Part shown: positions 3 through 28,487 of the stretch, one piece after another | How positions within the stretch are numbered: the first letter of the stretch is position 1 | Layout of the letters: each line of letters starts with the position of its first letter | Assembly (NCBI GenBank): GCA_041859375.1 | Contig: JBHEKP010000150.1 | Location: forward strand, 1 to 50,673 | Origin: Candidatus Hydrogenedentales bacterium | GTDB taxonomy: Bacteria; Hydrogenedentota; Hydrogenedentia; Hydrogenedentales; CAITNO01 | Direction: 5' to 3' | DNA length: 50,673 nt | Made by a program: the position numbers and the translations under genes | Notes under the pieces: model-generated | What the model was told of the DNA's origin: nothing | Databases searched by the model: none | What the model saw: the letters and a program-made list of their open reading frames with translations, nothing else

Positions 3-704
3 TTCTGCCGGCGCCCCGCCGCCTTCGCCCTTTCCCTCGCGCTGACTCTCGCGGGGGCGGCGGCGGGTGGGGCGCTGCTGCTGGCGGCCCCCGACGCCAA
101 GGAGGTGCTCGTGCCCTTCGCCCACATCCAGGGCGACCCGGCGGACCGGGTGGCCTGGGAGGAGGAGAACGGCGGGGGGCGGGACCAGGGCGGCCACGGG
201 GCCTTCGCCGCGATGCTCATGACGCACAACACGCGGGTGTCCATATTCACCCTCGCGCTGGGCGTCACCTTCGGGCTCGGATCGGCGGTCATGCTTTTCT
301 ACAACGGGATCATCCTCGGCGTGGTGGCGCTGGACTACGCGCGCGCGGGGCAGGCGGTGTTCCTCACGGGATGGCTGCTGCCCCACGGATCCGTGGAAAT
401 CCCCGCCATCCTGATCGCGGGCCAGGCCGCGTTCGTGCTGGCGGCGGCGCTCATCGGGCGGAACAGGCCCGAGTCGCTCCGGGCGCGCCTGCGCGCCGCC
501 GCGCCGGACACCGCCACCCTCATCACGGGCGTGGCGGTGCTGCTGGTGTGGGCGGGCGTGGTGGAGGCCTTCTTCTCGCAGTACCACGAGCCGGCGCTTC
601 CGTACCTGGTGAAAATCCTGTTCGGCGCGGCGCAGCTCGCGGCGCTCGCGGCCTTCCTGGGCTGGTCGGGGCGGCGCGGCGGCGGGGGGGCCGGGGATGC
701 GTGA
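3..704 (+). CDS. SpoIIM/DUF95-family integral membrane protein; 5' end lies outside the window
   Basis: The frame is open from the first bases of the window, so listed ORF 105..704 is only the Met-initiated part. It is a polytopic membrane protein with MLFYNGIILGVVAL and LLPHGSVEIPAILIAGQA segments typical of SpoIIM/DUF95. Its stop overlaps the next start (ATGCGTGA). Confidence 0.75.
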   Translation, partial: FCRRPAAFALSLALTLAGAAAGGALLLAAPDAKEVLVPFAHIQGDPADRVAWEEENGGGRDQGGHGAFAAMLMTHNTRVSIFTLALGVTFGLGSAVMLFYNGIILGVVALDYARAGQAVFLTGWLLPHGSVEIPAILIAGQAAFVLAAALIGRNRPESLRARLRAAAPDTATLITGVAVLLVWAGVVEAFFSQYHEPALPYLVKILFGAAQLAALAAFLGWSGRRGGGGAGDA

Positions 705-1605
705 TCGGCGGACAAAACGGCTTGTGATCACCACGCCCGAGGGGGTGTCCTTTCCGCTGCTGCTGGCGGGGCCCGGGGCGCGCTTTCTGGCGTGGCTGGT
801 GGACACCATGTGCGTGGCGGCGTCCTTCATGCTCCTGTTTTCCCTGCTCGCGGCGCTGCGCGTCCTGGCCGCGGAGGTCCATGCCGTGCTTGTGTTCCTC
901 TCGCTCTTCGCGCTGCCCGTCGGCTTCAACCTGGCCTTTGAGTGGCTGTGGCGCGGCCAGACGCCCGGCAAGCGGCTGCTGGGGCTGCGGGTCATGGACG
1001 CGCAGGGGCTGCGGCTCCAGTTCAACCAGGTGCTGCTGCGCAACCTGATGCGGGTGGTGGACATGATGCCCGCCACCTACCTCGTCGGGGGCGTGGCCTG
1101 CCAGCTCAGCCCGCGCGGCCAGCGCCTGGGCGATCTCGTGGCGAACACCGTGGTGGTGCGCACCGTCCGGGGCGGCCTCCGCGAACTGCCCCCGCCGGAG
1201 GACGGCAAGTACAACTCCTTCCGGGACCATCCCGCCGTGGAGGCGCGGCTGCGCCGCGCGTGCACCCCCCGCGAGGCGGCCCTCGCCGTGGAGGCGCTGC
1301 TGCGCCGCGACGCCCTCGACCCCGACGCGCGGGTGGCGGTGTTTGCCGCCTTTGCGGCGCATTTCAAGGCCAAGGCCGCCTTTCCGGAAGGCGTCCTCGC
1401 GGGGATTACGGACGAGCAGTATGTGCGCAACGTGGTGGACTCCCTGCACCGGTTCCGGAGCCCCGCCCTGCGGTCCATGCCGGAGGAGGACGCACCGCCG
1501 CCTCCGGCGCCCCCGCCGCCGCCCCCTCCGGTGTCACCGCCCCCGCCGCCTCCGCCCCTGGTGTCGGCGCCCCCGCCCCCGCCGCCCGGCATGCATGAAG
1601 GGTGA
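697..1605 (+). CDS. RDD-family membrane protein with proline-rich C-terminal tail
   Basis: RDD-domain pattern (FLAWLVD..., WRGQTPGKRLLGLRV, RLGDLVANTVVV) with hydrophobic helices. The C-terminus is PPPPAPPPPPPPVSPPPPPPPLVSAPPPPPP. The gene is translationally coupled to the upstream gene. Confidence 0.85.
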   Translation: MRDRRTKRLVITTPEGVSFPLLLAGPGARFLAWLVDTMCVAASFMLLFSLLAALRVLAAEVHAVLVFLSLFALPVGFNLAFEWLWRGQTPGKRLLGLRVMDAQGLRLQFNQVLLRNLMRVVDMMPATYLVGGVACQLSPRGQRLGDLVANTVVVRTVRGGLRELPPPEDGKYNSFRDHPAVEARLRRACTPREAALAVEALLRRDALDPDARVAVFAAFAAHFKAKAAFPEGVLAGITDEQYVRNVVDSLHRFRSPALRSMPEEDAPPPPAPPPPPPPVSPPPPPPPLVSAPPPPPPGMHEG

Positions 1606-1609: not shown

Positions 1610-1777
1610 CGGGCATGGACGGGGCTATAATGCGCCCCCCAACCCGGCAAGGAGGCGGACGCCATGGGCGAACTGATTTACACCTTTGCGAGCATCGCCT
1701 CGCGCTTCAAAAACGGAACTACGGCGCTGACGGGCATGCGCCGGCTGGCGGACACGCTGCACCCGCTCGGGGTGCCC
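1610..1777. repeat. Direct repeat copy A: duplicated promoter, RBS and first 38 codons of the gene at 4753 (truncated copy)
   Basis: 1626..1777 aligns by eye with 4717..4866 with one substitution and one 2-nt indel (TATAAT, AAGGAGG, ATGGGCGAACTGATTTAC...GGGGTGCCC). Homology stops abruptly at 1777/1778. Looser similarity (GGCATGG) reaches ~1610/4690. Confidence 0.9.
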
Positions 1778-1785
1778 TTAATCAC

Positions 1786-1929
1786 GACGCACGGGTGGCC
1801 TTGTTCTGCTCCTTCGAAAACCATTTCAAAGCCAATGTCTCCTTCCCGGAAAGCATCCTCGAAGTCATGACTAATGATCAGTATGTGCGTGGCGTGTTGG
1901 ACTCCCTGCACCGGTTAACGAACCCCGCC
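1786..1929 (+). pseudogene. Fragment homologous to the 3' end of an RDD-family gene (second, diverged copy)
   Basis: The translation DARVALFCSFENHFKANVSFPESILEVMTNDQYVRGVLDSLHRLTNPA matches DARVAVFAAFAAHFKAKAAFPEGVLAGITDEQYVRNVVDSLHRFRSPA (encoded at 1324..1467) at about 28/48 residues. It has no start codon or N-terminal domain and uses AT-richer codons. Confidence 0.8.
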
Positions 1930-1949
1930 GCCACTAGCATAGCGAGCTC

Positions 1950-3083
1950 TTACCGCTCAATACGTTTCCAGTTGTTTTTGTCTGTAGCGTAGGAGAGACT
2001 TATCGTCACCGCCGCCTCATACGAAAGCGCCATTACCCCCTCGGCCGCAGCCCTTCGTTCCTGCTCGGCAAGTGCTTCCGCCCGCACATCAGGCATCATA
2101 CTGAGCAATAACGCCACGGCATGATCCGCGCGGGTGGGGTATGGAACCAACACGTCGCCTTTGGTTTCCTGATAAGGCGTGATGTCTTGGGTGAAGGGCA
2201 ACAAAAATTCTGCAATTTCCGGACGTCTAATGTAAACGAGTTCCCCGGCGTTGTCCAGTAGTTGCTCCGGTGTCGAACTATTCCGCATGACCGTGGCAAT
2301 ACAGGCATGGATGTCTGGAGACTCATAAATGCGCGCGCTGGCACGCATCGCCGCCCAAGTCAACGAACCTTTCCACGTCTCACATGACAGCAGCCTGGCG
2401 GGTTCTGTTTCGCCGCGTATTTGCTTGTCAAGCTCAATGGCCTGAGCAAGATGGGGTTTGACCGATTCCATGCCCGCCACGCCGCAGGCGCCAATCAAAA
2501 AATTAAGCGTTCCGGTACTGTCCCTTTCCTGAAGAAGTAATGCCAAGGCCTGTTCCATGGAATTCCTCGCCGAGCCTGAAAAATCACGGCTTAGCGTGAA
2601 CAAGCGCATGCCATCCCGGATAACAGCCAATGCCTCGCGCCGTCGCCCCGCATCCTCCTTGTTTCCCAGCCAGTCCAGCATGGATGCGGCCAGTGTTTCC
2701 ACAGCGGAAACACGGATTTCCAGATTAGATGAATTCGCTGAAAAGGCCGCGTAATTGCCGTAGGCTTCCCGCATGACCCAGATTGAAGGGTCATGGAAAA
2801 GCGGGGGAAACATTGGGAGAAATATTTCGGCACCCCGCTCACAAAGATCCCTCACATTAACCAACGAGGGGTCTATACTGTTTGCATGTTGCCTGACTCC
2901 CGCCACATAACGTGCGAAGAGTTCCTCATTTGAAAATTCTTCGAGCTGTTTTCTTCTCGCTTCGTCAGTATTTATGGTAGCGTTATTGTCTGATTGGCCT
3001 TGAGCAAGTCCAGTAATTATAAAAAAGGCCATAATTGAAAAAGCGACTACTCTGTATCGATAAATAACTAACACAAATTCCAT
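1950..3083 (-). CDS. Hypothetical secreted protein (alpha-helical, function unknown)
   Basis: The start was moved to ATG 3083 (MEFVLVIYRYRVVAFSIMAFFIITGLAQG signal peptide), preceded by GGAG (complement of 3091..3100). It begins 19 nt downstream of the 3103 stop of the upstream gene. GC is intermediate. Confidence 0.65.
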   Translation of the reverse strand: MEFVLVIYRYRVVAFSIMAFFIITGLAQGQSDNNATINTDEARRKQLEEFSNEELFARYVAGVRQHANSIDPSLVNVRDLCERGAEIFLPMFPPLFHDPSIWVMREAYGNYAAFSANSSNLEIRVSAVETLAASMLDWLGNKEDAGRRREALAVIRDGMRLFTLSRDFSGSARNSMEQALALLLQERDSTGTLNFLIGACGVAGMESVKPHLAQAIELDKQIRGETEPARLLSCETWKGSLTWAAMRASARIYESPDIHACIATVMRNSSTPEQLLDNAGELVYIRRPEIAEFLLPFTQDITPYQETKGDVLVPYPTRADHAVALLLSMMPDVRAEALAEQERRAAAEGVMALSYEAAVTISLSYATDKNNWKRIER

Positions 3084-3102
3084 AATAAACTCCTTTCCTC
3101 TA

Positions 3103-4311
3103 TCAATATTGCCATTTTCCAGCAACTTCCTTATGAATCTGATCCCATTGATCTTTTCTAAGAACAGTATTCGTGCCAATTGGAACTGAATAACCCATAA
3201 GATTTGATGTGTCATAATGTAACACTGCGTTTGGATTCTCAGACTGGTAAAAATCAGGTAGCTTCCCTATCATATGTCCAACTTCATGAGCAATTGTTTG
3301 AAAAAAAACAGGTTGATTAGATGAGCATGCCACAAACCCAAAGCGTCCTCCAAGGTATGCATAACCTCCTGCATTTTGTATATATGGAGGAACTATAAAA
3401 ATTACATAATTATTATTTCCGAATATTTGGCCACATGAATCGATTATTGCTTGGGGTTCTGTGGTGGTTTTTTGTATATTTGGATTTACATAAGGATCTT
3501 GATATTGTTCAAAATTCAAATATTCATTATTATCTAAATCATATACAGATTGCACTAAATTTGGATACAAGATTACATTAAATTTCACTACACATTGATT
3601 ATAGACAATATTATTAAGAAAGTTTTCAAGCATTGTAGAATTTAATAGGGTGCATTGTTGATTAATGACAACAACTTGAAACAATAATGTCTTTGGCTCC
3701 TGATATGCCACTACATTCAAACCACCTAAAATTTCCCCTGTAGCTGTGCTAAATGCATGAAACCCTGTCTCTGCTTTATCCATTATAGAAGCGGCATTAA
3801 GGCGAGTCCCATTAACATTATTACAAATATTTGCGTCACGAACTGTAAATATCTCCTGACTATTGCTAACAGAAAATTCGGTATATTCTCCCCCTTTTAT
3901 TGATAACCAAGAAAATACTGTATCAGCCATATATAATCGTTGATCAAAACCATATTTCGTATTAACATTTTTTGTAAATGATATTGGCCACGGGAAAGAA
4001 TTATTTAATGCACGTTCAATTAGATAAAGCGCCGATATGTTTCCATAATCGTCAATAATAAATTTCGGGGATGTATCAACTGGGCTATTTGATTTTATAA
4101 TAAGCTCCTTGTAATTTGAATTTTGAATTAGGGGCGGAACTTCCGTTTGGTTTGTCACAAGGGTAAAGTTATCTTTGTAAGATCTATTTATTTTTCCATT
4201 TATATAAAGCATATCGCTATTTCTACTAGATCGGACAAAATTACGACCCAATTTACCCAAAAAAATTTTTTTTCTTTGTATAACTATATCGTATTTTTCT
4301 GTGCTTGTCAA
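3103..4311 (-). CDS. Zincin metallopeptidase (HExxH; M64/reprolysin-like arrangement)
   Basis: C-terminal ...GGYAYLGGRFGFVACSSNQPVFFQTIAHEVGHMIGKLPDFYQ...SNLMGYS contains an HEVGH zinc site followed by a possible Met-turn. GC is ~32%. No signal peptide is seen at the listed start. Confidence 0.7.
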   Translation of the reverse strand: MTSTEKYDIVIQRKKIFLGKLGRNFVRSSRNSDMLYINGKINRSYKDNFTLVTNQTEVPPLIQNSNYKELIIKSNSPVDTSPKFIIDDYGNISALYLIERALNNSFPWPISFTKNVNTKYGFDQRLYMADTVFSWLSIKGGEYTEFSVSNSQEIFTVRDANICNNVNGTRLNAASIMDKAETGFHAFSTATGEILGGLNVVAYQEPKTLLFQVVVINQQCTLLNSTMLENFLNNIVYNQCVVKFNVILYPNLVQSVYDLDNNEYLNFEQYQDPYVNPNIQKTTTEPQAIIDSCGQIFGNNNYVIFIVPPYIQNAGGYAYLGGRFGFVACSSNQPVFFQTIAHEVGHMIGKLPDFYQSENPNAVLHYDTSNLMGYSVPIGTNTVLRKDQWDQIHKEVAGKWQY

Positions 4312-4689
4312 GTGCTGTTTTATACAAAACTAGTAGAAAGGCCTTTTCAGGAGAAGCGCTCTCCGTTTAAATTATTAACTACCTGCAGAACCTGTGGTAT
4401 GAGGAAGGACCCTAAAAGCGACAAAATAGTGATGCCTTGTATGCATGTCGTGCAGGCCGTATGTGATTGTGTTCAAGAGTATCCGCTGAACTTTAGCCCA
4501 TTCTTTTTTGTCTCAAATTTTAATCGGGGCTCAAAGAGAGGCCTGACATAGTTTGTATCTTAGCATGGTTTTTCGAATAGGCTTTAGCCATGTGACTTCG
4601 CTGGAGATAACGTGGTATTCCTTTGATTGCCCACGCTGGAACAAGGGAGCCGGTAGGTTAACTTTAATTTGGGGACTGTACACCGTCCC

Positions 4690-4866
4690 GGCATGGCGGG
4701 ACGCGCCGGACGCGGGTATAATGCCCCCCAACCCGGCAAGGAGGCGGACGCCATGGGCGAACTGATTTACACCTTTGCGAGCATCGCCTCGCGCTTCAAA
4801 AACGGAACCACGGCGCTGACGGGCATGCGCCGGCTGGCGGACACGCTGCACCCGCTCGGGGTGCCC
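4690..4866. repeat. Direct repeat copy B (intact promoter and 5' end of gene 4753)
   Basis: Partner of 1610..1777; the near-identical core is 4717..4866. Confidence 0.9.
4717..4744 (+). promoter_or_regulatory. TATAAT -10 box (4717..4722) and AAGGAGG RBS (4738..4744) for gene 4753
   Basis: Perfect TATAAT hexamer and a perfect Shine-Dalgarno 8 nt before the ATG at 4753. The same elements are duplicated at 1626..1653. No convincing -35 was seen. Confidence 0.5.
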
Positions 4867-6078
4867 GTGACCTGGCTGGTGAGCCCGGACTCGGCACGCG
4901 CCGCGGCGGCGCAAATCACGGAATGGCACGACGCCTTCGGCGACGAGGTGGCGGTGGCCCCGCCGGAGCTGTCCATCTCCCACCTGGTGGCCGACGCGCC
5001 CTACGGGGCGAGGCGCGACCGCTATGCCGCCGCCCGCGACGCCATACAGAAGGTGATGCCCTGGGCGGAGTGCGCCGTGGCGGCGGGCCACACGGACCCG
5101 GACATTGTCCGCATCTGCGCGGAGCTGGGCTTTGAGGGGCTCTGGGGCTTCTGCTGGGAGCAGATTGAGGTGGACGACATCACCGACCGGGGCTGCCCCT
5201 GGGGCTTTTATTACATGGACCGGGACGACCGGCTCCGTCCCGCGCGGGGGCGCGGCCCCGTGGCCATGGAGTGGACCGCCCACGACCTGCTCAAGACCTT
5301 CCACAGCGGCAGCCCCTGGCTCTACTCGACGGATCCCAACGATGTGGGGCGGGGCGGCCTCTGCGCCTGGGAGGACACGGACTACTGGAAGGCGGTGGCG
5401 GACCAGTACCTGCGGAACACGCGGCACAACGGCCAGGTGATCCTGCTCCAGCACCAGGAGTCGCACGAGATGGAAATCGCCGACGGCTGGCGCTGCTACA
5501 CGGAGGAGGACATCCGCGAGGCGCTCGTGTTTCTCGACGCTTTTGTGCGCCACCTGAAACCGAAGGCGCGCATCATGACCCTGGCGCAGGCGGCCCGCGC
5601 CTACCGGGAGCGGAACGAACACACGGCGTCCTCGTACATGCTGTGGGACGACGTCCCCGCGCCGCGCCACAACCCCGACTACGCCTGGAACAACTGCCCC
5701 GGCCCGTGGCCGAGGACCTTCCTGTTTTACGACCGGGACGCGCAGATGGTGTTTGTGGACGGCCAGGTCCATCCCGTGTGCCTGCGCAACTATGGCAAGG
5801 CCTGGGACCGGCTGGATTACTACGCGGAACACCGCATCCCCCGCCCGAAACTCATCCGCAACACCCAGTTCACCTGGAGCCGCGAGATTGAAATTGTGGT
5901 GGAAAGCGACCGGGCGCTGCCCTACGGGCTCACCCTCTGGGGCGATTACAGCCTCTACCAGTTGGGCGACTGCCCGGGGCTGATAGAGGGAAAAATCCTG
6001 CCCCATGAACTGCTTTTCCTGAGGTACGACCTGCAACCGGGCGAAAACCGCCTCCTCATCCGGCTCCAGGGGAAATAG
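4753..6078 (+). CDS. Conserved hypothetical protein (family not recognised)
   Basis: Host-like GC and codon usage, with a strong RBS. The start is taken at MGELIYTF rather than at the upstream ATG 4669. Length is 441 aa. Confidence 0.7.
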   Translation: MGELIYTFASIASRFKNGTTALTGMRRLADTLHPLGVPVTWLVSPDSARAAAAQITEWHDAFGDEVAVAPPELSISHLVADAPYGARRDRYAAARDAIQKVMPWAECAVAAGHTDPDIVRICAELGFEGLWGFCWEQIEVDDITDRGCPWGFYYMDRDDRLRPARGRGPVAMEWTAHDLLKTFHSGSPWLYSTDPNDVGRGGLCAWEDTDYWKAVADQYLRNTRHNGQVILLQHQESHEMEIADGWRCYTEEDIREALVFLDAFVRHLKPKARIMTLAQAARAYRERNEHTASSYMLWDDVPAPRHNPDYAWNNCPGPWPRTFLFYDRDAQMVFVDGQVHPVCLRNYGKAWDRLDYYAEHRIPRPKLIRNTQFTWSREIEIVVESDRALPYGLTLWGDYSLYQLGDCPGLIEGKILPHELLFLRYDLQPGENRLLIRLQGK

Positions 6079-7075: not shown

Positions 7076-7225
7076 GCGCCGCTCCTTCTCCCCGGCCCGT
7101 CTCCGCCCACTATAATCCATCCCGCCCCGCGCCCCAAAACACTGAACCGTGGGGGATGGGAAAAAGGGTGGCCGAACCCCCTCGTTCATCTTTATAATTG
7201 TCGAGGTGTTAACCGCCCCAGCGGG

Positions 7226-8401
7226 ATGGAATGGAGGAATCGGAACGTGTCTACTGCGTCAAAATGGTTCTATTGGTTCAGTTCCCTCGCCATGCTGGGC
7301 GGATTTCTCCTCTTTTCACCCAATGCCGCCGCCGACACATTCAAACGGACACCCGCCAACGGCGAGGATGCCGTGTGTTATGACATTAGCGCCGACGGGA
7401 ATATACTTCGCCTAGACTATGCACAGCAGAAGATGACGGTTCTCGGCACTGTGCCATTGAAAGGGAGTTCGCCGGACATATGCGTGTATGGGGCGATAGC
7501 CCCTGATGGTCGCGCGGCGTGGCTGCTCTTTCAAACATTAAAGGCCAACTGGACGCACAGTGCGCTGCACCATTTCGACATGGCGGAACAAAACCTGCGG
7601 GCGGCGGGCCATACGATCGAGACCGCCGGGGACTTCGCCATGGTCGCGGCAAGTTCCATGGCGTTCTATTGCGCGGAAACACCTTCAGAACCGGCGCTGC
7701 TGGTGAGGAAAACAGCCGATGGTTTTGAGAAACTCACCGCGAAATTCACCTTTGGCGGATGGCGCATTTTTTCCACCGCACCGGGTGGTGCTCTATTCTT
7801 GAGGCCCAATGCATACGGACCCGGTTATCTTTGTATTCAAACGGGCAGCGGCAGCGTTGTCCGGCACGGCACGGCGGAGGTTTTATGGGGCAGACAGGAT
7901 GTCTCGCGTGTGGGAATCAGCAATATTTGTGGTAACTACGGTCTGGTTGGTTGTGGGGCATCCGACGGCACACGTCTTTGCGCCATTCAAAACCTTGAGA
8001 CAAACGAGACCATTGCGGTTATTCCAAATGTTCCCGAAGGGGAGGCCGAGGCATGTCTGCACCGAATTGGCAGGGAGACACTGGCCATTGATGTTTTTTG
8101 CGGCGCCCATAACATCACCACAAAGGAGTTCCAATATTCAGGGCTTGTGAGGCGGTATGTTGTTGATCTCAAAAAGAAGTCCTTCTCAGGCCCCGAGGAA
8201 TTCAACTTTGAGCCCGCCACACAATTGATGCTCCGTGTGGGGACGGAACTCAGATCATGCCCCAGGCACCACTTCGGCTATGTGGGCATGCGTGACTTCG
8301 CGCATGGCGTTCAGATGGACACGCCTCTGGAAACATGGGATGACCGGACGCGACGAATTGACTTGTTGCGGTCCCGGCTGGCTGAAAAGCAGAATGAATG
8401 A
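7226..8401 (+). CDS. Hypothetical secreted or membrane-anchored protein
   Basis: Only the 3' part of listed ORF 6092..8401 is plausible. The start is ATG 7226 (MEWRNRNVSTASKWFYWFSSLAMLGGFLLFSPNAAA). GC is ~52%, intermediate between backbone and island. Confidence 0.6.
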   Translation: MEWRNRNVSTASKWFYWFSSLAMLGGFLLFSPNAAADTFKRTPANGEDAVCYDISADGNILRLDYAQQKMTVLGTVPLKGSSPDICVYGAIAPDGRAAWLLFQTLKANWTHSALHHFDMAEQNLRAAGHTIETAGDFAMVAASSMAFYCAETPSEPALLVRKTADGFEKLTAKFTFGGWRIFSTAPGGALFLRPNAYGPGYLCIQTGSGSVVRHGTAEVLWGRQDVSRVGISNICGNYGLVGCGASDGTRLCAIQNLETNETIAVIPNVPEGEAEACLHRIGRETLAIDVFCGAHNITTKEFQYSGLVRRYVVDLKKKSFSGPEEFNFEPATQLMLRVGTELRSCPRHHFGYVGMRDFAHGVQMDTPLETWDDRTRRIDLLRSRLAEKQNE

Positions 8402-8423
8402 TGCGCCGTGAAGAGACGGCAGG

Positions 8424-8447
8424 AAAGCGGAAACCCGCCGCTTTTTT
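8424..8447 (+). terminator. Possible intrinsic terminator after 7226..8401
   Basis: Short hairpin AGCGG-aaacccg-CCGCT followed by TTTTTT. Confidence 0.4.
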
Positions 8448-8674
8448 CGCGTGCCAATCATACCCCCAAAACGCCTTTCTCGTGGCCGCAAAGGACAATC
8501 TTCCCGACTCGGTCTGTTAAAATATACAGGCAGACATCAAAACATGTCCAAGACTCCCGCCCAAACAGCCTACTTCTGCCGTATATGGCGGTTAAAAAGG
8601 GTTGATTTTTTGAAAAAGACATGGTATCCTACAATCGGTTCAGTTAAGAAAATCAACTTAAAGGAGGAAGTTAC

Positions 8675-9340
8675 ATGAAAAAAGTAGCGATTTTTGTCTG
8701 TCTCATGTTGTGTTTTGGTGTTCAAGCGGGTGGACAGATTCCAGATCCGGTTACCTGTCTGTATTGCCCACTTTCTTCAATACCAGAGGGAACAACAGTG
8801 CTTTCATCATGGTGTAAGTCTCAAGTCAGTAAATTGGTACAGTATCAGAATCCCGTATTCACGAAACTGGCACCACAATATGTTTATGCAGGTGGCTGCA
8901 ATGATCCAGCACCGAAAACAGAGGTGTCTACGCTAACAATAGGTAAAAATCAGGAAACAAGTTGGACAATCTCTGGGGGAGTGGAGGGTGGATGGGCGCT
9001 TGGATGGACAGTAACGGGCCATTTTGAGGTAGGTTGGACTGGAACTTGGGGAGAGACAACAGAGGTTTCGGTTACGATGACCAGTGTTAGCAAAGGCAAT
9101 GAACGAATCAGAACAGAATTTGAAGTTACACGCACGGATTGGTCTAGTTATTTTGAAGAGACAAAAAGTGGCTTTATGGTATGTCATTATATTGGTGCAT
9201 CGCCAGACACAGGATTTTTAGTCCCTTGTCCAACAACAACCGAAAAAATAGATGGCAAGCCTGGAATAACACTCATGGCCAAAGAAAAAAGTGCTGTAAA
9301 CGATTGTCCTCCTCCGACAACTATTACATGTGATAAGTAA
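8675..9340 (+). CDS. Small secreted Cys-containing beta-rich protein (unknown function)
   Basis: AAGGAGG RBS and signal peptide MKKVAIFVCLMLCFGVQAGG. The central alternating Gly/Thr/Trp stretch is TLTIGKNQETSWTISGGVEGGWALGWTVTGHFEVGWTGTWGETTEVSVTMT. Confidence 0.7.
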   Translation: MKKVAIFVCLMLCFGVQAGGQIPDPVTCLYCPLSSIPEGTTVLSSWCKSQVSKLVQYQNPVFTKLAPQYVYAGGCNDPAPKTEVSTLTIGKNQETSWTISGGVEGGWALGWTVTGHFEVGWTGTWGETTEVSVTMTSVSKGNERIRTEFEVTRTDWSSYFEETKSGFMVCHYIGASPDTGFLVPCPTTTEKIDGKPGITLMAKEKSAVNDCPPPTTITCDK

Positions 9341-9450
9341 ACTATATCATACTTTGTTTTTTTGTATGGGATAAGTGTGTTCTTATTCAATCGTACAATT
9401 TGCTCGCAATAATTTATGTCAAGGTTGAGACAGAGTGGGAGGTGTTGAAA

Positions 9451-10839
9451 ATGAAATACTTTATTATATCATTTTTAATTCTAGCTACAAATATTAAATT
9501 AGCTAATGCAGAAAATAATAATAATGACGCATCAAATTCCTACGAATACTCTCAAACATCAATAAAAAACAAATTAGAAGCGCTTAAAACAAACAGTAAC
9601 ACGGATGATATTATTGAGATTATAAATATTGGAAAAAAACTTGAAATTATGGGGGATGATATATTAGCAACAGAATGTTTTGAGACCGTTGCAGTTTATG
9701 GTAAAAATCATATCGCTTATCGCTTTTTAGCTGCGGAAGCTGCAATAAATTTAGTGCTTTCTATGGGCTCAAATAGTTATTATCGCGCATCAAATTTACT
9801 TGAATTGGAAGTCTCATTAGCTCCTGAATTGCTAGCAAAGACACCAAAAAATATCAATAATGAAGGGTCAAAAATTAATATATTAGCCTGTTGTCCTGAT
9901 ATTCTTAGGGCAGAGATTATGGTGAAAACACAAAATTACTATTTGGCAATTCCCCTGCTTGAAAATATAATTTCAAATTATGATGACACACTAGGTAGAC
10001 TTGATAAAAAAACATTGCTTAATACAGGAATAGAGGAAAATGAGATATATGTTTGGCTTATTTTATGTTATGTAGATAATATTAAAAACAACAATTACGA
10101 TCGTAATAAAAACGAAAATAACTATGAAAATATATATAAAATTTTACTTAAATATATAGAAAATAGCAATAAGGACAACGGGCTTGATAGTCGCATTGTT
10201 GATAACATACCAGTGTTGTTAAATATATTTAAAGGGCCAGATGGGATTAAAAAAATTGAACAAATAATTCAAGTGGCTGGATTAAGTCGTGCGAAAATGT
10301 TGATGATTTTATTGGTATATCCAGATGAAGAGGCTCGCAAATTAAACACTACTGGTGAGGAAATGGATATTGCATACAAGCAATATTTATGTCTAGTAGA
10401 AAATTGTTTTGAAAACGAATCAAAAAAAGAATATTTAGTCGATTTTAATTTTTCTCGATTAAGAAATGCTATGCGAAAAGCAAAAAATCGTGAATTAGCA
10501 GATTTAATTATTAAGGACATTATTGAGATATTTCCCCTTTCGGAAGATCAAATGATAACTTTTTCTAGCCTCCAAATAGAATACGTTAATACGTTTTTAG
10601 ATGGTAAAATTAAAGATTTGCCTTTTGCGGAAATTGCAGTTGCAGCCAAAAAACTCCTTCCAAAACAAGAAAATGGGTTAAATGAGAATGGTACAATCAA
10701 GAACAATTTAAGCGGCAATAATGTGAATAATTACATCAATGATAGCAATTTTACTAAGCAGACATATATATGGGTAATTGTATTTTTTATTGGAATGCTT
10801 ATAGTTTTCATTGCATATATTATTCGAAAGCACAAGTGA
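9451..10839 (+). CDS. Hypothetical secreted helical-repeat protein with C-terminal membrane anchor
   Basis: Start at ATG 9451 after GGGAGG. Signal peptide [20 protein letters not shown] and C-terminal [22 protein letters not shown] followed by RKHK. Composition is Asn/Lys/Ile-rich. Confidence 0.7.
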
Positions 10840-12554
10840 TGCTTCCTTATCAAATAAACATAAATAATATTTTATTAACACCATATTTCTTTTCAATAAT
10901 ATTCGCTTTTGGTTTTGGTTATTTGTTGTTAATGGCGATTTCTAGAAAAATATACAATATTAAAAATATTGATGTATATTTTTTGTTTTTTGTATTTGTC
11001 GTCGCAATGGTGTTTTCGCATATTTATTGGTGTATTGAATATGGTGCTAATATTTTTTCATTAAATGTATTTAATTTATTTTCTCCTGGGCATGTATTTT
11101 ATGGTGGTCTATGTGGAGGGGTAGTTGCTTCTTATTTCTACGCCCGAATAAAAGGAATAAGATTTTTAACTTTATTAGATATGCTGGCTATCCCTACAGC
11201 TATTGGGTATGCAATCGTTCGCATTGGATGTTTTTTTACAGGGTGTTGTTATGGAAGAGAAACTGATTGTATATTTGGGGTTTCGTATCCTCCATTTGTA
11301 AAGGGTCCATATGCGCTGCAAGTGCATTATGGGAAGATTACGGTCCTATCTGACCATTCTATGCCTGTTCATCCATCACCCCTCTATTTATCGCTTGGAA
11401 GTATAATAATCGCTATTTATCTATCATATTGTACATTTAAAAAATGTTATCAAAGTGGTGAAATTGTAAAGAAATATATCATATTGTATGGCATCTTGCG
11501 CTTTTTTGTAGAATTTACTCGACAGAATGTCGGGAGTTTTTATATGTGGGGGATGTCCGGGGCTCAGTTCATATCACTCGGAATTATTTTTATTCCCATA
11601 TTTTTATCTTATATAGGCACCTGCCAATTTATATGGCAAAAGGGCATAAGAAAAAATAAAAATAATTCTAATGGTTTTTCTCTTGTTGAACTTCTTGTAG
11701 TAGTTGGCGTTTTGATCATGCTCGCCTCGTTGCTGTTACCGGCTCTTTCCAGCGCACAAGAGGCTTCAAGGCGATCTAGTTGTCAGAATAATTTGCGCCA
11801 ATGGGGAATGGCTTTTAAGATGTATAGTTCAGAGGCAAGAGGAGGATATTATCCTCCTATACAGTTAGAAATGACCGATCTTCGTAAAGGTGCTCTCGCA
11901 ATTGCTCCTAAACTAGATTCGATTTATCCAGAGTATGTCCCCAGCCTTGATATTTTAACTTGCCCAAGTGCAACGCATAGAATTAATAAAATTGACTTAT
12001 TTCGGGATAGAGGAAATATGGATCGATGTTATGCATATTTGGGATGGGTGTTAGACAAATGCGAAGAGAGTGGTCCGCGTATGACAGTACGTGAATTACT
12101 CGATTTAATTCCTTTTGTGGATTCAGATTTATATCAAGGCGAGCTAGAGGGACCTCGGCAATTCGTCCTACTTTGCGCTGCTATAGCTAGGAGGACTATA
12201 ATAGAATCTATATTTACATCACAGAATATTTTAGATATTAGTCGCAGGGTTGCTGCCACTGATGTAACTGTATGGGAATCTGACATTGGCAATGGAAATA
12301 CAAGCACCATTTTCCATATTAAGGAAGGAGTTGAACGATTCGCAGAGTTGGCCGAGAGCAACGTGTGGGTTATGTTTGACGCAATCTCTTCCGATGTGAA
12401 TCGTTTCAACCACGCTGTAGGTGGTGTGAATGTACTATATATGGACGGGCATGTTGAGTTATTACGATATCCAAGCAGGGCGCCTGTGAATAAAGGGATG
12501 GCATTATTTTTAGGAACTATTCTTGATAGACACTGGCTTCCGGAGTCTGAATAG
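10839..12554 (+). CDS. Fusion protein: Lgt-like (prolipoprotein diacylglyceryl transferase family) membrane domain + prepilin-type pseudopilin with H-X9-DG-like C-terminal motif
   Basis: The start overlaps the upstream stop (TGATG). The N-terminal half has Lgt-family motifs ([39 protein letters not shown]). At 11673/11676 there is a prepilin cleavage/methylation site [32 protein letters not shown], then [16 protein letters not shown] and [16 protein letters not shown]. Confidence 0.75.
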
Positions 12555-12829
12555 AGTGAATTGCTGAGCGGTATTTATCACTGTGAACCAAAGATCGTTG
12601 TGAGTGATATGAAATTAGATTTTAGGTCTTTTTCGTCGGTTCGTGTTGCAAAAGGCGGGATGCCTAATTAGGAGCATTTTTGCAATCAGCCGTGGGCCAC
12701 TAAGGGAACTCTAATAGATCTCCGGAAGCACCGGCAATTTAAGGAATGATTGCACGCACCATCGCCGTCGGCAAATGCAAGATTACGGCGTCTGGGATTG
12801 CCGGACAAGAGGACCGCCCCATTTTTGAT

Positions 12830-12951
12830 GCCCCAACGGGGCTGTGCAACAAAGCCTTGGGCTGTCCCGCCCCGAAGGGGCTGGACTACCTAGGGTAAGG
12901 CGGAACATATGGCCAACCTATCCTGTAGAGATTGCGCAGCCCCGTTAGGGC
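12830..12951. repeat. Imperfect inverted repeat / structured intergenic element
   Basis: Arm GCCCCAACGGGGCTGTGCAA (12830..12849) matches the reverse complement of TTGCGCAGCCCCGTTAGGGC (12932..12951) at 18/20. An inner hairpin GTCC-c-GCCCC-gaa-GGGGC-t-GGAC lies at 12864..12886. Confidence 0.5.
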
Positions 12952-13104
12952 AAAGAAGGACGGTATCATACGGTTCCTTGAATATGCCGACTATGAAGGC
13001 ACTATTGCGCCCGGCGATTAGGACCCCCAAAACGCCCCCCTTTACCCGCCCCGAGGCAATCGGCTAAAATCCATCCTCACCCGTGAAAACAAGGAACATC
13101 CACC

Positions 13105-19183: not shown

Positions 19184-19768
19184 GGCGCTCTTTCAAAAAA
19201 GGAAACCCGGGATGGGGCGCGTTAGGGAACAGCCCCTTCCGGCGGGGCTATTCCATGGCCTGTATTGTACACGCGCGCCGCCCCGCCGCTCCATCCTTCC
19301 CCACCGGGGCAGGCGCGCCGTTGTGGACAACAACGCACGCATATATGAAATAAACAAAAAATGCGAATATGGCGCGCAAAAAAAACGATGACCAGCCGTT
19401 TCCACTAATATTTTTGTTGAAAAAAAGTTGTTTACAACCTATGATTTGACTAGAGCACAGCACTTATTTTGAATGGGCCGTGTTTCCACACAACCCATAT
19501 TCAATTTTTTTTGTCCTTATGTTTTTTGAGGCGCACATCAGTCGGCCTTGCAACGCACAAGGAAAACCGTGGTGAAAAAATGGATGGCGTGCACCGGGGG
19601 GGAAGCGGCGCTTTTTCCCAACCGCCACGCATCCACCCCCTCCACCCCCGTCCTTTCCCGCCATCGAATCCCCTCCCTTGGTTTCCAACAACGAACGGGC
19701 CGCACACTGGCCCGGAGTTGCGCGGTATTTTCCCGCACCCGTTCCGATCAAAAGGAGAATGCGAACTA

Positions 19769-22700
19769 ATGCAAACATCCACCACTTCCCCGGCCGCACG
19801 ATTCTTCGGAGTTTCCCTTGCCGCGGCCGGAATGATGCTGTGCGCTTTTCTTTGCGCCACAGGCGCGCAGGCCGCCACGCTTGACGACCTGTACAAAAAC
19901 AGCGGCTCCCCCTCGCTGGGCAGGGTGGTTCTCGCCCCGGGAGACTGGGTGACCATCAACACGAGGAATGCCGGCGGCGCCAACCCGACCTTTGTGGTCA
20001 ACGGCACAACAACATACACGGGTGTTGCGATAAATTACGGCCAGGGTGAAGTGGCCGTTTTTTATTTCGATCACCTCAACGTCCCCGAAGGTGTTGACAT
20101 CACGGTCACCGGCACCCGCCCCCTGTCCATCGTGTCCGACAATGACATGGTGTGGGGTGCCTCCGTGCTCGTGCCCGCCGGACAGCTTGGCGGCGGCGCG
20201 GGCGGCGCGGGCCGGGCGGGCGGCGGCGGCGGCGCGGGCGGCGGCGGCGGCGCGGGTGGCCGGGGCGGTTCGGGCGGCGGCGGCGGCGGCGGCGGCAACC
20301 GGGTTGGCGGCGGGAACACCACGGGCGGCGCGGGCGGCCGGGGCAGCGCGGGGCTGGACGGTGTTTCAGGCGGCGCGGGCAATTCGGGCGGCACAGGCGT
20401 GCAGGGGTTTGCCGGCGGGGCCGGATTCGGCGGAACGCCCGCGCCTGCGGGCGGCGCGGGCGGCGGCAGCGGGTCCGGCCTGGACGGCGGACTCCGGGGC
20501 ACCGGCGGCCCCCAGACGGGCTTGACGGCCGGGGGTATTCTTACAGCGGACGAACTCCATGTGCCGGTGGACACCGGCTTTTTGGGCATCACGCTTCATG
20601 CGTATATCCGGGTCGGCCTGGGTGGTTCGGACGGCACCAGCAATCCGGGCAACGCGGGCAGTCCGGGCAATGACGGCCTGGCGGGCCAGTCCGGCGGCCA
20701 GGGTGCGGCGGCAGAGTATGACAACACCGGTTTGGCGGACACGCTGACGCTGGCGGCGGGTTCGGGCGGCGCGGGTGGCGGCGGCGGCGGCGGCGGTGCG
20801 GGCGGTGCGGGCGGCGGCGGCGGTGGCGGCGGTTCGGGTGGTGCGGGCGGCGGCGGCGGCGCCGGTTCAACAATCAGTGTTTCCGGACTGGACTGGCTTA
20901 TTGATCTGTTTTTTGGCGGCCGCGACATCGCCGGGTCGGGCGGCGGCGGCGGCGGTTCCGGTGCGGGCTGTTCGGGCGGTTCGGCGGGCGCGGCGGGCGC
21001 GGCGGGCGGCCAGGGAAGGATGAAGAAGAATGCCTCTCCGGGCAACGGCGGCGCGGGCGCCGGGGCCAATGGCGGCGGTGGCGGCGGCGCGGCGTCTCCG
21101 GGGGGAAGCGGCGCGGCGGGCGGCGGCGGTGTCGGCGGCACGGCGGGCGCGGGCGGCACGGGTGGTTCGGGTGGTTCGGGCGGTTCGGGCGGCGCTGGCG
21201 GCGGCTCCTTTGTGCTTGCGGCGCGCGGCGTGCTTCAAATCATCGGCGCGCCGATTTTTGACGTTTCATCCACCGGCGGAACGACGGGCGCCGGCGGCAA
21301 CAACGGCGCGGCGGGCGCGGGCGGCACGGCGGGCAGCTCGGGCGGCGCGGGCGGCGCCGGACCTTCAATTATCATAGAAAACGGCACCATTGCCGGGCTT
21401 CTTGGGTCAAACGCGAGCCTTTTGAGCAAGGGCGGCAACGGCGGTGACGGCGGCAAGGGCGGCACGGGCGGCGCGGGCGGCCGGGGCGGCAAGGGCGGCA
21501 CGGGCGGCGCGGGCGGCCTGGGGGTGCCGGGCATGGTCAAGCTCCAGGGCTCCATCATCCTTGTGGACGATCAGGCCACCGTGGCGGCCAACAACGTGAA
21601 CGGCGCCACCGCCGCGAAACGGAACGGCTTCTTTTCGCGCATTTCGAACATGGGGCAGCAGCTGTTGTCGGACAACGTTCCCGCGTTCGACGCGCCCAAC
21701 ATCAACCGGGGCGTGCTGACCAACCCCACGGCGATCCAGGGCCCGAACTCCTTCGACGCCGATCCGGGCCATCCCTTCATCGGCGAGCTTCGCAACAGCA
21801 ACCAGGCCCTGCCTTACCGCATGGCGGACACGGAGGGCTTCCTGGACACGGCGGGCGGATTCTGGAACCAGGCCGAGATAATCCCCGGACAGTTCCCGAA
21901 CCTCCGCAACGTGGAAATCGCCCGTGTTTCCGGCATATTCAACGGTTACGATCAGATTTATGTGAGAAACAGAAGCGCCGTCACGGCAAACGGCGTGATG
22001 CTCAACGTTGACGGCGTGGCGACGCCGCTGCCGCCCGAGCCGGGCTCCTCGGTTCCGGGGAGCATGTCCCCCGGCAGCGTGTTCACCACGACGGTGGCCA
22101 GCACGGTTTCCTATGTGGGTCTTGGCGCGGGCGTGATGACCTTCGCGCCGCCCGTTTCCAGGACGGCGACGGTCAACAGCACCGTCGCCCTCTCCGTGAC
22201 GGTCACCCAGAGCAACGGCACCCCGACCTACAGGTGGCAGTATTACAACCCGGACACGGGCCTTTGGGTGAACTACACGGGCGCGAACGCAAACACCCGC
22301 GCCATCAGCTATGATGTTGACTGCGCGCCGCTTTACGAGACGGACCGGTTCCGGTGCGTCATCGAGGACAACACCCAGCAGGTCATTGCGGGCCCGGCCA
22401 CGATCACCTATGTGGACGTGCCGATAACCTTCAACTCCCAGGCGGGCCCGGTGGGGATCAGGGTGGGCGACACGCCGCCCCCGATAATGGTGGACGCGCA
22501 GGGCGGAAACGCCATGACCTATTACGGCCCCCCCGGCAATTTTGACTTCCAGTGGGAGCGCCTCAACCCGGTGAGCAACCTTTGGGAGCCGCTCGCCTCG
22601 AACCCCGGCAATTACACGGCCGCGGGCGACCAGTTGAGCCTTGCCAACGCCCAGCTTTCCGACAGCGGCTCCTTCCGCTGCGTGGTTTATGACGCGCCCT

Positions 22701-25700
22701 TCCCGGGGTGCAAGGTGTCGCCGCCGGTGGCGACCGGCGTTTACCTGATCACCGTGTACGACAACCTCGCGATCCGCACCCAGCCCCAGGGGCAGACGGC
22801 GCATCTGGGCCAGGACTTCCTGCTCTCGGTGGATGTTCCGGAGACGCTGAGGAACATCACCTACACGTGGGAAAAATTCACCGGCACCCCGCCGGCGTCG
22901 GGATGTCCCGACCCGCTTTCCCCGAACTGGGCCCCCGTTCCCGGGGCGTCCGGCACGCCGAAGCACATGATGGCCGCCGAAACCGCCACCGACGGCTACT
23001 ACCGCGTGACGCTGGCGGATCCGCTGGGGAGCGTGGTGCGCTCGGACTGCGCCCGCATGACGGCGCTCCCCTTTGCCCTTTCGCGCGAGCCGGAGGATCT
23101 GTACGCGTACACGGCCGCGGTCCCGCCGCAAATCGAGGTGGTGGCGGAGGACGCGCGGGGCACGGTTGAGTACCAGTGGTTCCGGGTCGGCGCGAAGGCG
23201 CAGATCCCGATTCCGGGCGCGACGGGCAGCACCCTGTCCTTTGCGTCCCCGACGGTGGGCGAGGAAACCTACCAGTGCCGGGTGGTTGACAACACCGGCG
23301 CGCCCTCGCCCGAGGAAATATGGACCCGCCCGGCGAAGGTCCGCGTGGCGAAGCCCTTCACGCTGCTGCAGGGTCTTCAGGACGATCTTGCCGCCGCCGA
23401 GGGCCAGCCGAAGACCTTTGCCGTGCAAACCGAGGGAGGCCTGGACGTGCATTACCAGTGGAGCAGGGATGGCCAGCCCATCACGACGCCGGACGCGCCC
23501 GTTTACACCATCCCCTCGGTTTCACTGGAGGACGCCGGCATCTATTCCGTCCTGGTCACCTATCGGGGCGGATCCGTCTCGTCGTCGGCGAACCTTCAGG
23601 TCAGCGGCGGGGTGCCCGCGGCGTCGCCGTGGGGCCTTTGCGCGCTGGCGGCGCTGGTCGCCTGTGCCGCGGCGTGGCTTCTTTGCCGCCGCCCGTCACG
23701 GCGCGCGCTGCTGCCGCTGCTGCTGGCGGGCCTGATGCTCGCCGCCTCGCCGGCGGGCGCGCAGACCGCGCCGGACTTTGACAAGGTGCTGCTCGATCTC
23801 AAGGCGGTGCTGAGCAACCTGTTCACGGTGAACGGCACGGACACGTGGAGCGGCGGCGCCTCGCCCATCTACCAGCGGGTGCAGGGGCAGTCGGGCTTCG
23901 TCGGGTACGATCTGAGCCTTGCGAAGCACGGTGGCAACGGCATAGACAGCGACGACTACTTCTCGCTGGTCGAGACGATCGTGAACACGAGCCAGACGTG
24001 CACGCCGCCCCTGAACACGGTGAACCCGAGCATCATCCCGAACATCCGGTCGGCCTACTGGGTTTCGCGGAACCAGGTCAGGAACCTCGAGCTGACATTG
24101 CGCAACCTGAACGTGCACATTAACAACCTGTCGATATCGGGCATGAACTTCTCCAACCTCGACATTCTCGTTCCGTCCATCACGACGGGCCAGGAGAACA
24201 CACTTCTTGGCTTCCCGGTGGACATTCCCAGCCTCTGGACCAACAAGTACCCGGCGGGCAGTTCGGGCCTGCTGGCGGACGCGGTTGAGCTTCAGGGTCT
24301 TACGGACGCGAACGGGAACCCGGTGGTGTACGACCTTGAGAACTGCCTGATGGACGTGGGCGCGGCGGTCATGACCACGGGCGACGAGGCGGCCATCAAC
24401 TGGTACCGCGGCCTTGTGGGCAACCTCTGCAACGGCATCATCCAGAACGTGGTGCCCAAGCTGCTTGAGGGCATCGCGGGGAAGTCGCTCGACAAGGGGC
24501 TCACCGAGTCGCAGCAGAAGAGCGTGGCCGATCAGCTTTACGCGGCGTCCATCGCGGGCTCGGTGTACGTGGTGTCGGACTGTGCCGGCTGCGAAAAGCA
24601 GGACAAGGCCCTTTACGTGATGACGGGGTGCTCGACACAGGTCATCAACGTTAACATCAACGAGCCGGGGACCGTTGTGAACGGATCCGTCACGATCAAC
24701 GGCGCGGATCTCTGCACCTCCCTGAACGAGGCCATCGGCCAGTTTGCCTGCGGCGCCTATCCCTGCCAGACGGCCCGCCTGGCGTCCACGGGTGATTTGA
24801 ACATGGACGGCCGGACCAACCGCGCCTCCTACGCCCTTGTGTCGGGCGCGCGCGGCGCCTGGTTTGAGGCCGAGGCGGCGGACTTCCCGGAGATTAATGT
24901 CCAGAACTGGCCGGCCCAGCCGGTCAACCCGACCTTCCTGGGGACCATCCCGATGGCGGTTGACGTGGACCACACCCGCGCGGGCGCGCCCAACTACCGG
25001 TTCAGGCTCTACAGGCGCGCCACGCCCGCCGAGCCCTGGGTGCAGGTTGACACCTCGTCCGGTTCATACAACACTTCGACGGGGGTGTACTCCTTCAGCC
25101 TTGACGTGAACTGGCTCCAGGAGCGCCAGTTCCTGTGGACCGTTGAGACCGGCTGCGGCACGGGCCTGAAGCAGTCGCAGGTGTACGCGATCAACGTGCC
25201 CGCGCCCGCCATCACCTTCAACCCGGCGCTGCCCGCGGCGCAGTGCGTGCGCGAGAACGATCCCTTCAGCTTCACGGTTTCGGCGACGTGCCCGCAGGGC
25301 AGCCTGTCGTACCAGTGGCAGCAGGACAGCGGCGCGGGCTGGGCCAATGTGGCCGGGGCGACGGGCCTCACCCTGAGCAGGCCCCAGGCCTCTGCGCAGA
25401 CCCACGCGGGCGTGTACCGCTGCGTGGTGACGAACACCCTCAGCTACCCCGGGGGTTCGGCCTCGTACTCTGCGTTTTCGCCCACGGCCAAGCTGAGCGT
25501 CCTGTATTACCACACCCAGCCGGGCCAGTTTGTCTCGGTCCTGATGGGCACGGGATTCTCCCTGTCGGTGCGTCCGGCGGGCGGCAACGTGGCCTACCCC
25601 GTTCCGTTCTCCGTCCCCGACGCGCAGTACCTGCCCCAGTACACCTACCAGTGGTATCTCAACGATGTGCTGATTCCGGCGGCGTCCAACGCCACGGCGG

Positions 25701-27127: not shown

Positions 27128-27139
27128 TTTGTGAAAGGT

Positions 27140-27416: not shown

Positions 27417-28487
<1,071 letters not shown>

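Follow-up and report, generated by a model that had tools for sequence, protein, structure and literature searches.

Results

Repeats of the geneX 5′ end bracket an AT-rich insert

The window analysed here is the whole stretch of 50,673 nucleotides, which comes from an uncultured wastewater species of Candidatus Hydrogenedentota (one source record is labelled wastewater metagenome). Near its left end, an AT-rich insert of 2945 nt (~2.95 kb, positions 1778–4722), called island 1 here, lies between a gene for an RDD-family membrane protein and a gene for a conserved protein, which we call geneX. The insert is bracketed by two nearly identical copies of the geneX promoter and 5′ end, and it begins with a decayed fragment of the RDD gene. 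The host genes, the repeats and the features at the left junction are as follows.

697–1605, plus strand: host RDD-family membrane protein gene (Pfam PF06271, E = 3.9e-18), intact
1312–1467, plus strand: part of the host RDD gene homologous to the relic, codons ~206–257 (repeat family D3)
1617–1777, plus strand: repeat copy A, with the native upstream region, TATAAT, AAGGAGG, ATG at 1664 and the first 38 geneX codons; ends at 1777
1664–1870, plus strand: chimeric 68-codon open reading frame (ORF), 38 geneX codons and then 30 out-of-frame codons through the relic
1774–1941, plus strand: RDD relic, a decayed 3′ part that begins mid-gene at codon ~206, with tblastx similarity to 1941
4708–4866, plus strand: repeat copy B, its first 15 nt an island-specific variant and the next 144 nt of host type, in front of the intact geneX
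4753–6078, plus strand: geneX, intact, encoding a conserved protein of 441 aa found in Hydrogenedentota, Latescibacterota and KSB1

A repeat search of the window returned 1634–1777 and 4723–4866 as a direct repeat of 99% identity. Aligned together with the TATAAT box, the copies extend over 1626–1777 and 4717–4866 and differ by a 2-nt indel (GC at 1632–1633) and one substitution (T1720 against C4809), and BLAST stretches the match by another 9 nt, with 2 mismatches, to 1617–1777 and 4708–4866. Each copy holds the TATAAT box (1626–1631 and 4717–4722), the AAGGAGG motif, the ATG (1664 and 4753) and 38 codons of geneX. The GC content is 0.73 in the flanks, 0.54–0.56 over 1800–2850 and 0.30–0.35 over 3000–4350, and from 4650 it is back at 0.67–0.75. 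The original prediction, made from the letters of the window, had described the coordinates and contents of the repeat, the abrupt end of copy A at 1777 and the drop in GC, and repeat search, alignment and BLAST bore all of these out; the repeat, the second copy of RDD sequence and the GC drop are not chance matches.

Island 1 carries no recognisable mobility gene. Pfam, NCBIfam and PHROG searches of the island ORFs returned no integrase, recombinase or transposase family, and a tRNA scan found no tRNA within the window, in agreement with what had been predicted. There was likewise no Rfam match in the island, and terminal inverted repeats of the insert were not found, the score being equal to the shuffle mean. 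The chimeric 68-codon ORF, which is annotated as a 68-aa gene in two further contigs introduced below (L001 and L002), is an accidental by-product of the left junction.

Filled and empty alleles occur within the species

Exact look-up, in public assemblies, of the proteins encoded by geneX, the cargo genes and the RDD gene found contigs of the same species, with flanks 99.0–99.6% identical. The whole filled structure is present in L001 (ENA MUNK22-1 scaffold_213) and L002 (GCA_016278185.1, JADHEF010000571.1), and a SPAdes contig (L012) spans the RDD tail, copy A, the island and copy B. A MEGAHIT k141 contig (L013) and four Logan unitigs (L014–L016 and L018) hold the island with exactly k or k−1 bases of the repeat at each end. 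Both junctions are reproduced in at least four independent assemblies (L001, L002, L012 and L013).

An exact empty site was found in 7 contigs from 7 samples (L004–L008, the 302-kb contig L063, and L064). It consists of the left flank of copy A, to which it is identical there, then the repeat once, then copy B's right flank leading into geneX. Samples with filled contigs are ERZ28614854/SAMEA4700777, ERZ15184813, ERZ27239140, ERR2607456 and SRR30164233, those with empty contigs are SRR30207020/21/31/32 and ERZ15185865, and ERZ28615113 has both. The RDD gene and geneX are full length in filled and empty alleles alike, and no recipient DNA has been deleted. Island 1 is a presence/absence polymorphism within the species with both host genes intact, and the empty sites in these seven conspecific contigs substantiate the proposal of an insertion that spared its neighbours.

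The same comparison with other species, also suggested in advance, was uninformative, as their loci have no RDD gene near geneX. Among GTDB representatives, the relatives of geneX come from metagenome-assembled genomes (MAGs) of Candidatus Hydrogenedentes/Hydrogenedentota with at most 75% amino acid identity, those of Latescibacterota and KSB1 being more distant. We inspected 8 kb around geneX at 41 such loci, all from GTDB species representatives and all at or below this identity, and none (0/41) had an RDD gene, a SpoIIM gene, an AP-endonuclease-family gene or a cargo homologue in that span, which indicates that the RDD–geneX adjacency is lineage-specific. A second geneX 5′ end was also absent from every one of these loci (0/41), so insertions do not recur at the geneX 5′ end. 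The donor had been pictured as a genome with the same RDD–geneX synteny; no such genome was found.

In the host, the RDD gene closes a DUF4129–DUF4350–MoxR–DUF58–SpoIIM–RDD operon, as seen from the context in L001 and L063. Its proline-rich tail (1468–1605), encoded by (CCG/CCC)n, is the most variable part of the flank, with in-frame indels between strains and products called elsewhere as 292–295 aa.

The insert begins with a decayed RDD relic

The predicted second copy of the RDD 3′ end is present, at 56–58% amino acid identity, and its homology starts at 1774, not at 1786 as first stated. Positions 1774–1929 align with 1312–1467 of the host gene over 156 nt without gaps, at 74% nucleotide identity (blastn E = 5e-21). 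Among 120 RDD homologues, the relic, which bears CCCTTAATCACGAC, is closest to the host protein (56%; the next are at 50–54%), and over a 55-residue segment the two share host-specific residues (A1, A9, F14 and H46) at which the rest of the family differs. These shared residues point to an origin of the relic in the host lineage or a close relative of it, so that the related source proposed for this piece holds good.

The relic has replaced residues that are 83–100% conserved in the family (P4H, A15E, G31V, D34N, E35D and N40G), residues of 95–100% invariance being among those lost, and at the sites where host and relic differ, the family-majority residue is found in the host at 13 and in the relic at only 2–3. 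The differences fall on the three codon positions in the ratio 12:10:19, the ratio of nonsynonymous to synonymous change (dN/dS) is ~0.46 (0.26/0.56), and 30 of the 41 nucleotide changes run from GC to AT, against 6 of 41 from AT to GC. The loss of invariant residues, the near-even spread over codon positions and the GC-to-AT bias argue for a pseudogene and against a working orthologue; judged by this substitution pattern, the relic is a pseudogene that has drifted under AT-biased mutation. The idea that it is written in the AT-richer codons of a lower-GC genome is not supported: since its AT-richness reflects decay, the relic is no guide to the GC content of a donor. It also retains the ancestral residues L10, V22 and E30, which the host gene has lost, and was therefore not copied from the present-day host gene.

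The 72-aa relic peptide matched only itself among 5.8 billion proteins, and an exact 40-nt pattern from the relic, searched in Joint Genome Institute (JGI) metagenomes, was found only in JADHEF010000571.1, the same contig as L002. Comparison of the island with the remaining window and the extended contig, by blastn (word size 7) and tblastx, detected no relic beyond this one.

The two junctions differ in kind

At the left junction, copy A ends in ...GGGGTGCCC and the relic starts with GCC CTT AAT. The equivalent stretch of the host RDD gene, taken as a proxy for the donor, reads GAC GCC CTC GAC, so that GCCC is shared and overlaps the end of the repeat at 1774–1777. Apparently the left junction is an illegitimate joint, made in the middle of a gene at a 4-nt microhomology.

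The right junction lies at the edge of copy B, where the island-bearing sequence GGACGCGGGTATAAT departs from the host edge GGACGGGGCTATAATGC by 2 substitutions and a 2-nt deletion. This island-specific left edge of copy B bears GGACGCGGGTATAATGCCCCCC, and the variant was seen in island-bearing contigs only. In copy B, which precedes geneX, island DNA takes the place of the −35 region. Convincing homology of the island's right end to the host is confined to 4708–4722. We had considered 4560–4716 as the 3′ end of a donor's RDD gene and dropped this candidate, its similarity to the host RDD tail or intergenic DNA being no better than that of shuffles. In L001 and L002, the two repeat copies are 100% identical over 144 nt, and both are of host type.

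Population data

In comparisons of the window with L001 or L002, the island shows 0.3–1.4 differences per kb and the flanks 4–10 per kb, so that diversity is 5–10 times lower in the island. This places the common ancestor of the island copies more recently than that of the surrounding core DNA. The low diversity fits both a recent gain spread by flank-mediated recombination and an allele at low frequency whose loss through the 144-nt repeat is common.

Another variable segment, island 2 (described at the end), lies only 2.3 kb downstream of island 1, and all four combinations of the two were seen: both present in the window, island 1 alone in L001 and L002, island 2 alone in L004 and L005, and neither in L063. 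The haplotypes of single-nucleotide polymorphisms between and around the islands are mosaic. Together, the four combinations and the mosaic haplotypes indicate a freely recombining population or, alternatively, repeated gain and loss. With the low diversity of the island, they show that the filled allele is moved or lost by recombination within the population.

The cargo is a mosaic cassette

The remainder of the insert holds two genes on the minus strand and a spacer, with a promoter-like site in front of the pair.

1950–3083, minus strand: cargo gene 2, 377 aa with an N-terminal signal or transmembrane segment; an ORF with a ribosome-binding site
3103–4311, minus strand: cargo gene 1, a 402-codon ORF called as 369 aa from ATG 4212; 33% GC
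4283–4311, minus strand: promoter-like site TTGACA-17-TATAGT, 11/12 matches, before the cassette
4312–4707, no strand: non-coding spacer, 38–50% GC, with the last ~30 nt GC-rich

Cargo gene 1 (GC at third codon positions 0.22) is predicted to combine an immunoglobulin-like beta domain with a metzincin-like HExxH zinc-metallopeptidase domain. Alignments show a conserved motif, TIAHELGHxxGxLxD...NLM...LRKxQWD, in which this protein carries HEVGH and in which H342, E343 and H346 are invariant or nearly so. Profile matches were to IgA protease M64 and snapalysin (M7), at E = 7e-4 to 3e-3, and no curated family threshold was reached in Pfam or NCBIfam. In an AlphaFold2 model of mean confidence (pLDDT) 73.6, the C-terminal ~210 residues superpose on the catalytic domains of ADAM, ADAMTS and snake-venom metalloproteinases (Foldseek E down to 4e-6; for ADAM and ADAMTS, E = 4e-6 to 1e-3 and a template-modelling score on the target of 0.5–0.6). 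With HExxH placed within a metzincin fold in the model, the product is a predicted metzincin-type peptidase. Its homologues P0005, P0007 and P0008 have ~79 extra N-terminal residues that include a signal peptide; homology begins at 4251 and a stop codon lies at 4312–4314, which indicates that cargo gene 1 is truncated at its 5′ end and has no signal peptide. The promoter-like site is a consensus match only, 12 such sites having been found against 5 expected in the AT-rich region.

Cargo gene 2 has 51% GC with an AT-rich 5′ end of ~180 nt, and its product is predicted to be a helical secreted protein without a family match in Pfam, NCBIfam or PHROG. A single homologue was found among 5.8 billion proteins, P0003 (42% identity), encoded in L061 (Logan SRR3330206). 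There, positions 1–2199 encode an HExxH protein of 176–193 aa followed by the 360-aa homologue of the 377-aa protein, in the same order as here. No other relative of the island-1 cassette was found; this one (42% and 40% amino acid identity) has ~50% GC and GC-rich flanks unrelated to the RDD gene or geneX, and the sequencing project that yielded it also yielded the MAG with the closest geneX relative (L021, 75%). The two cargo genes are a cassette that is mobile in a broad sense, with its L061 relative in a different context. When the two cargo proteins were looked up exactly, every contig recovered was this same island and ended in the repeat, and no toxin or immunity family was matched by the cargo in Pfam or NCBIfam. 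The spacer (4312–4707) had no significant similarity to host DNA in shuffle comparisons, blastn or tblastx.

The switch in GC content inside the 5′ end of the 377-aa gene indicates that the cassette is itself mosaic, of 51% and 33% GC. The insert is a patchwork, in which the RDD relic, derived from a relative of the host lineage, is combined with a gene of 51% GC, a 5′-truncated metallopeptidase-like gene of 33% GC, and the spacer. An insert made of one donor's DNA, as first envisaged, finds no support in this mosaic or in the different setting of the L061 relative.

Discussion

A proposed homology-dependent duplicative integration

We regard homology-dependent duplicative integration through the geneX promoter and 5′ end, with no dedicated recombinase, as the best explanation of this locus and as a probable one. 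The incoming molecule would have held the relic, the cassette and the spacer together with the geneX promoter and 5′ end (144–161 bp), either carried along or copied by gap repair, and would have been closed by an illegitimate joint that fused the end of the repeat to the middle of the relic at GCCC. One crossover with the chromosomal geneX 5′ end, by way of a Campbell-type circle or an equivalent ends-in route, would then duplicate the 144–161 bp on both sides of the insert and leave the RDD gene and geneX intact. The filled allele now segregates in the recombining population, and RecA-type recombination between the repeat copies can delete the insert precisely. The Campbell-type geometry is suggested by a repeat of a chromosomal segment that brackets the insert, combined with an empty site that has exactly one copy; the illegitimate left joint is suggested by an insert that starts mid-gene, at RDD codon ~206, with a GCCC overlap. 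Observed directly are the anatomy of the locus, its filled and empty alleles, the decay of the relic and the lack of mobility genes; the circular or ends-in intermediate, the part played by microhomology, and the direction and time of the event are inferred.

Several points weigh against this explanation. Both repeat copies are of host type, while the adjoining relic is only 74% identical to the RDD gene; had the donor copy been equally diverged, a single crossover would have left one repeat copy diverged as well, and an extra assumption is therefore needed. Either the most recent donor belonged to the same species, or ends-in gap repair, primed by homology in the promoter region, copied the host's repeat onto the incoming molecule, or the two copies were homogenised afterwards. 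The single crossover of a circular molecule in the geneX 5′ end, as in the original prediction, accordingly fits the geometry and requires this addition. Protein look-ups and the JGI metagenome pattern search found neither a circular form nor a donor genome, and the microhomology was read with the host RDD gene standing in for the donor sequence. A polymorphism with a 144-nt repeat is, moreover, symmetric, and the empty sites could be secondary deletions, so that it does not fix direction or age.

As a class, such an event is already known, as insertion-duplication or Campbell integration and, more broadly, among small strain-variable segments that arise from illegitimate and homologous recombination; the mechanism class is familiar, and the cargo is without an established function. 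In an E. coli conjugation experiment by Amarir-Bouhram and colleagues, 56 of 60 clones screened for one-sided-homology integration, or homology-facilitated illegitimate recombination (HFIR), had arisen instead by one crossover of a partly degraded molecule that had closed into a circle again, with homology duplications of 109–950 bp, and only 4 of the 60 were true HFIR (PMC3240628). Island 1 has in common with those Campbell-type products an insert between direct duplications of the homology (144–161 bp here), intact target genes without deletion, no dedicated recombinase, and reversibility through the repeats. It differs in being a natural event in an uncultured phylum, known here from contigs; in that the joint of the circle would be illegitimate and fused to a relic; and in that both repeats are of host type, the incoming homology being host-derived or later converted.

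Alternative origins

Canonical HFIR is an alternative that we hold to be unlikely. A linear fragment would have come from a strain of the same species in which relic, cassette, spacer, repeat and geneX were already arranged in this order, and would have entered an empty-site strain, with a homologous crossover in geneX or downstream and with the relic end joined illegitimately to the resident repeat at GCCC. This would account for the two host-type repeat copies without gene conversion, and free recombination in the population suits it. In HFIR, as PMC3240628 and PMC5361080 summarise it from de Vries & Wackernagel 2002, Prudhomme et al. 2002 and Meier & Wackernagel 2003, insertion is coupled with deletion at GC-rich microhomologies of 3–10 bp. 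Island 1 resembles it in the foreign DNA trapped beside the anchor and would also share one homologous junction and one illegitimate junction at a putative short (4-nt) GC-rich microhomology. HFIR, however, normally removes a recipient segment of similar size, and comparison of empty with filled alleles shows that here nothing was lost and that the anchor was duplicated over 144–161 bp. Nor was a precursor allele observed that has the relic without the repeat before it: every island contig that is long enough continues from the relic into the repeat.

An old origin in situ appears improbable. It would start from an ancient tandem duplication of a unit from the RDD 3′ end to the geneX 5′ end, followed by later insertions, with the relic decaying in place, the repeats kept identical by gene conversion or recombination with empty alleles, and the empty sites arising as secondary deletions. 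The relic is nearest to the host RDD gene and has derived residues in common with it, its AT-biased and nearly position-independent substitutions are those expected of neutral decay in a genome of 72% GC, and the 144-nt direct repeat would ease precise loss. Old neutral DNA should nevertheless be at least as diverse as its flanks, not 5–10 times less so, and the ancestral L10, V22 and E30 exclude the present gene as the source of the relic. The 33%-GC and 51%-GC genes are foreign in any case, and the arrangement was seen at none of the 41 loci of relatives.

Site-specific integration, with the repeat as an att site in the geneX 5′ end and the island as a remnant or satellite that lacks a recombinase and resembles a cis-mobilisable element (CIME), its integrase acting in trans, is very improbable. 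An element bracketed by direct repeats has this form, and a replacement promoter and 5′ end that keep the target gene intact are typical of many integrative elements; against this, no integrase was found in the island or the window, the left arm starts partway through a pseudogene, a second geneX 5′ end is missing from all 41 related loci, and the insert amounts to no more than 3 kb of unrelated pieces. The trans-acting integrase and the ancient in-situ origin are both less likely than the Campbell and HFIR routes.

Least credible of all is an assembly artefact, in which assemblers wrongly threaded together an empty-site chromosome and another molecule of 3.1 kb, circular or unrelated, that shares the 144-nt segment. 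The repeat exceeds the k-mers used (k127, k141 and k31), so that a circle plus an empty chromosome and the integrated form yield one and the same de Bruijn graph; two island contigs, of 3005 and 3227 nt, terminate exactly k−1 or k nt within the repeat, and filled and empty contigs both occur in sample ERZ28615113. Nevertheless, the same path is threaded by three long contigs from different samples and pipelines (the window, L001 and L002), the SPAdes contig L012 joins the RDD tail to the island, and copy A of the window has a T at 1720, private to the window, where copy B has a C. The distances from T1720, 87 nt to the copy-A-specific indel and 58 nt to the relic, let ordinary reads or k-mers phase the RDD gene, copy A and the relic on one molecule, and since T1720 occurs in copy A only, the two copies are distinct sequences and not a collapsed repeat.

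Relation to other accessory segments

Homologous recombination with one illegitimate joint thus being preferred for island 1, the locus can be set beside other known arrangements. Orphan 3′ ends in Rhs, contact-dependent inhibition (CDI) and type VI secretion system (T6SS) loci (PMC5361080) likewise place a diverged 3′ end of an upstream gene downstream of it, in the same orientation and beside acquired genes. Here, in contrast, 119 homologues conserve the RDD C-terminal region, which is no polymorphic toxin, there is no immunity-gene logic, and the relic has lost invariant residues without displacing the functional RDD gene. Flexible genomic islets (PMC2884548) share a size of a few kb, the lack of known mobile-element genes, polymorphism within the species, and formation by illegitimate and homologous recombination; only ~10% of such small strain-variable segments are flanked by direct repeats, mostly below 30 bp (PMC2884548), whereas the repeat here has 144–161 bp and includes a promoter and 38 codons. 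Integrase-type islands, prophages, integrative and conjugative elements (ICEs) and CIMEs differ from island 1, whose ORFs match no integrase family and which has no tRNA and no recurrent att site across the 41 loci. Transposons and insertion sequences (IS) differ as well, as it has no transposase or terminal inverted repeats, and a repeat of 144–161 bp is not a short target-site duplication.

Island 1 is a clean natural example, segregating in an uncultured phylum, of foreign DNA added between two genes with neither damaged, and its value lies in having both states, the repeat, the relic and population data together, which makes the event interpretable. Several islets of the same general kind lie within this one window. 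A wider reading, to which we give little credence, is recombinase-free transfer of accessory genes, in which a cassette would use the host promoter and 5′ end as a portable homology arm and always restore the target gene. If this were true, the cassette would enter, leave and spread between strains by host homologous recombination alone, and the four strain-variable low-GC islets in a 50-kb window, all of them lacking mobility genes and one having a flanking 9-bp repeat, would point to mobile-element-independent gene gain in Hydrogenedentota. For annotation, there is a caution that an apparent second copy of the upstream gene is here a pseudogene relic.

Other variable segments in the window

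Island 2 (7141–13024; 5.9 kb, 27–57% GC) lies between an AP-endonuclease-family gene and a PfkB/CTP-transferase gene and is flanked by a 9-bp direct repeat, CCCCAAAAC (7132–7140 and 13016–13024). It is absent, with one repeat copy remaining, from L001–L003 and L063, and its left junction is present in L004 and L005; no terminal inverted repeats or mobility genes were found in it. Its ORF at 10770–12554 (594 aa, 37% GC) encodes an Lgt (prolipoprotein diacylglyceryl transferase) domain fused to an N-terminal-methylation/DUF1559 pseudopilin-like domain.

The third low-GC stretch, island 3 (~45000–47400, ~35% GC), is present in L065–L069, and its ORFs at 45310–46311 and 46502–47344 are distant paralogues (25% identity) without a family match. 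When the cargo proteins of islands 1, 2 and 3 were compared, no similarity was found save that between these two weak paralogues. After MurB, from ~48520 to 50673 (52% GC), the window departs from L065, which goes on to PhoU_div and PHO4; this fourth strain-specific segment carries an spr1629-family helix-turn-helix repressor or antitoxin-like gene (48690–49895) and an overlapping ORF of 167 aa.

Elsewhere in the window, ORFs of very large size (2552, 386 and 1722 aa) occupy 19469–33658, glycine-rich repeats run through them in their hundreds with a 9-nt phase, and in the same region a 94-nt repeat pairs 27187–27280 with 33701–33794 at 72% identity.

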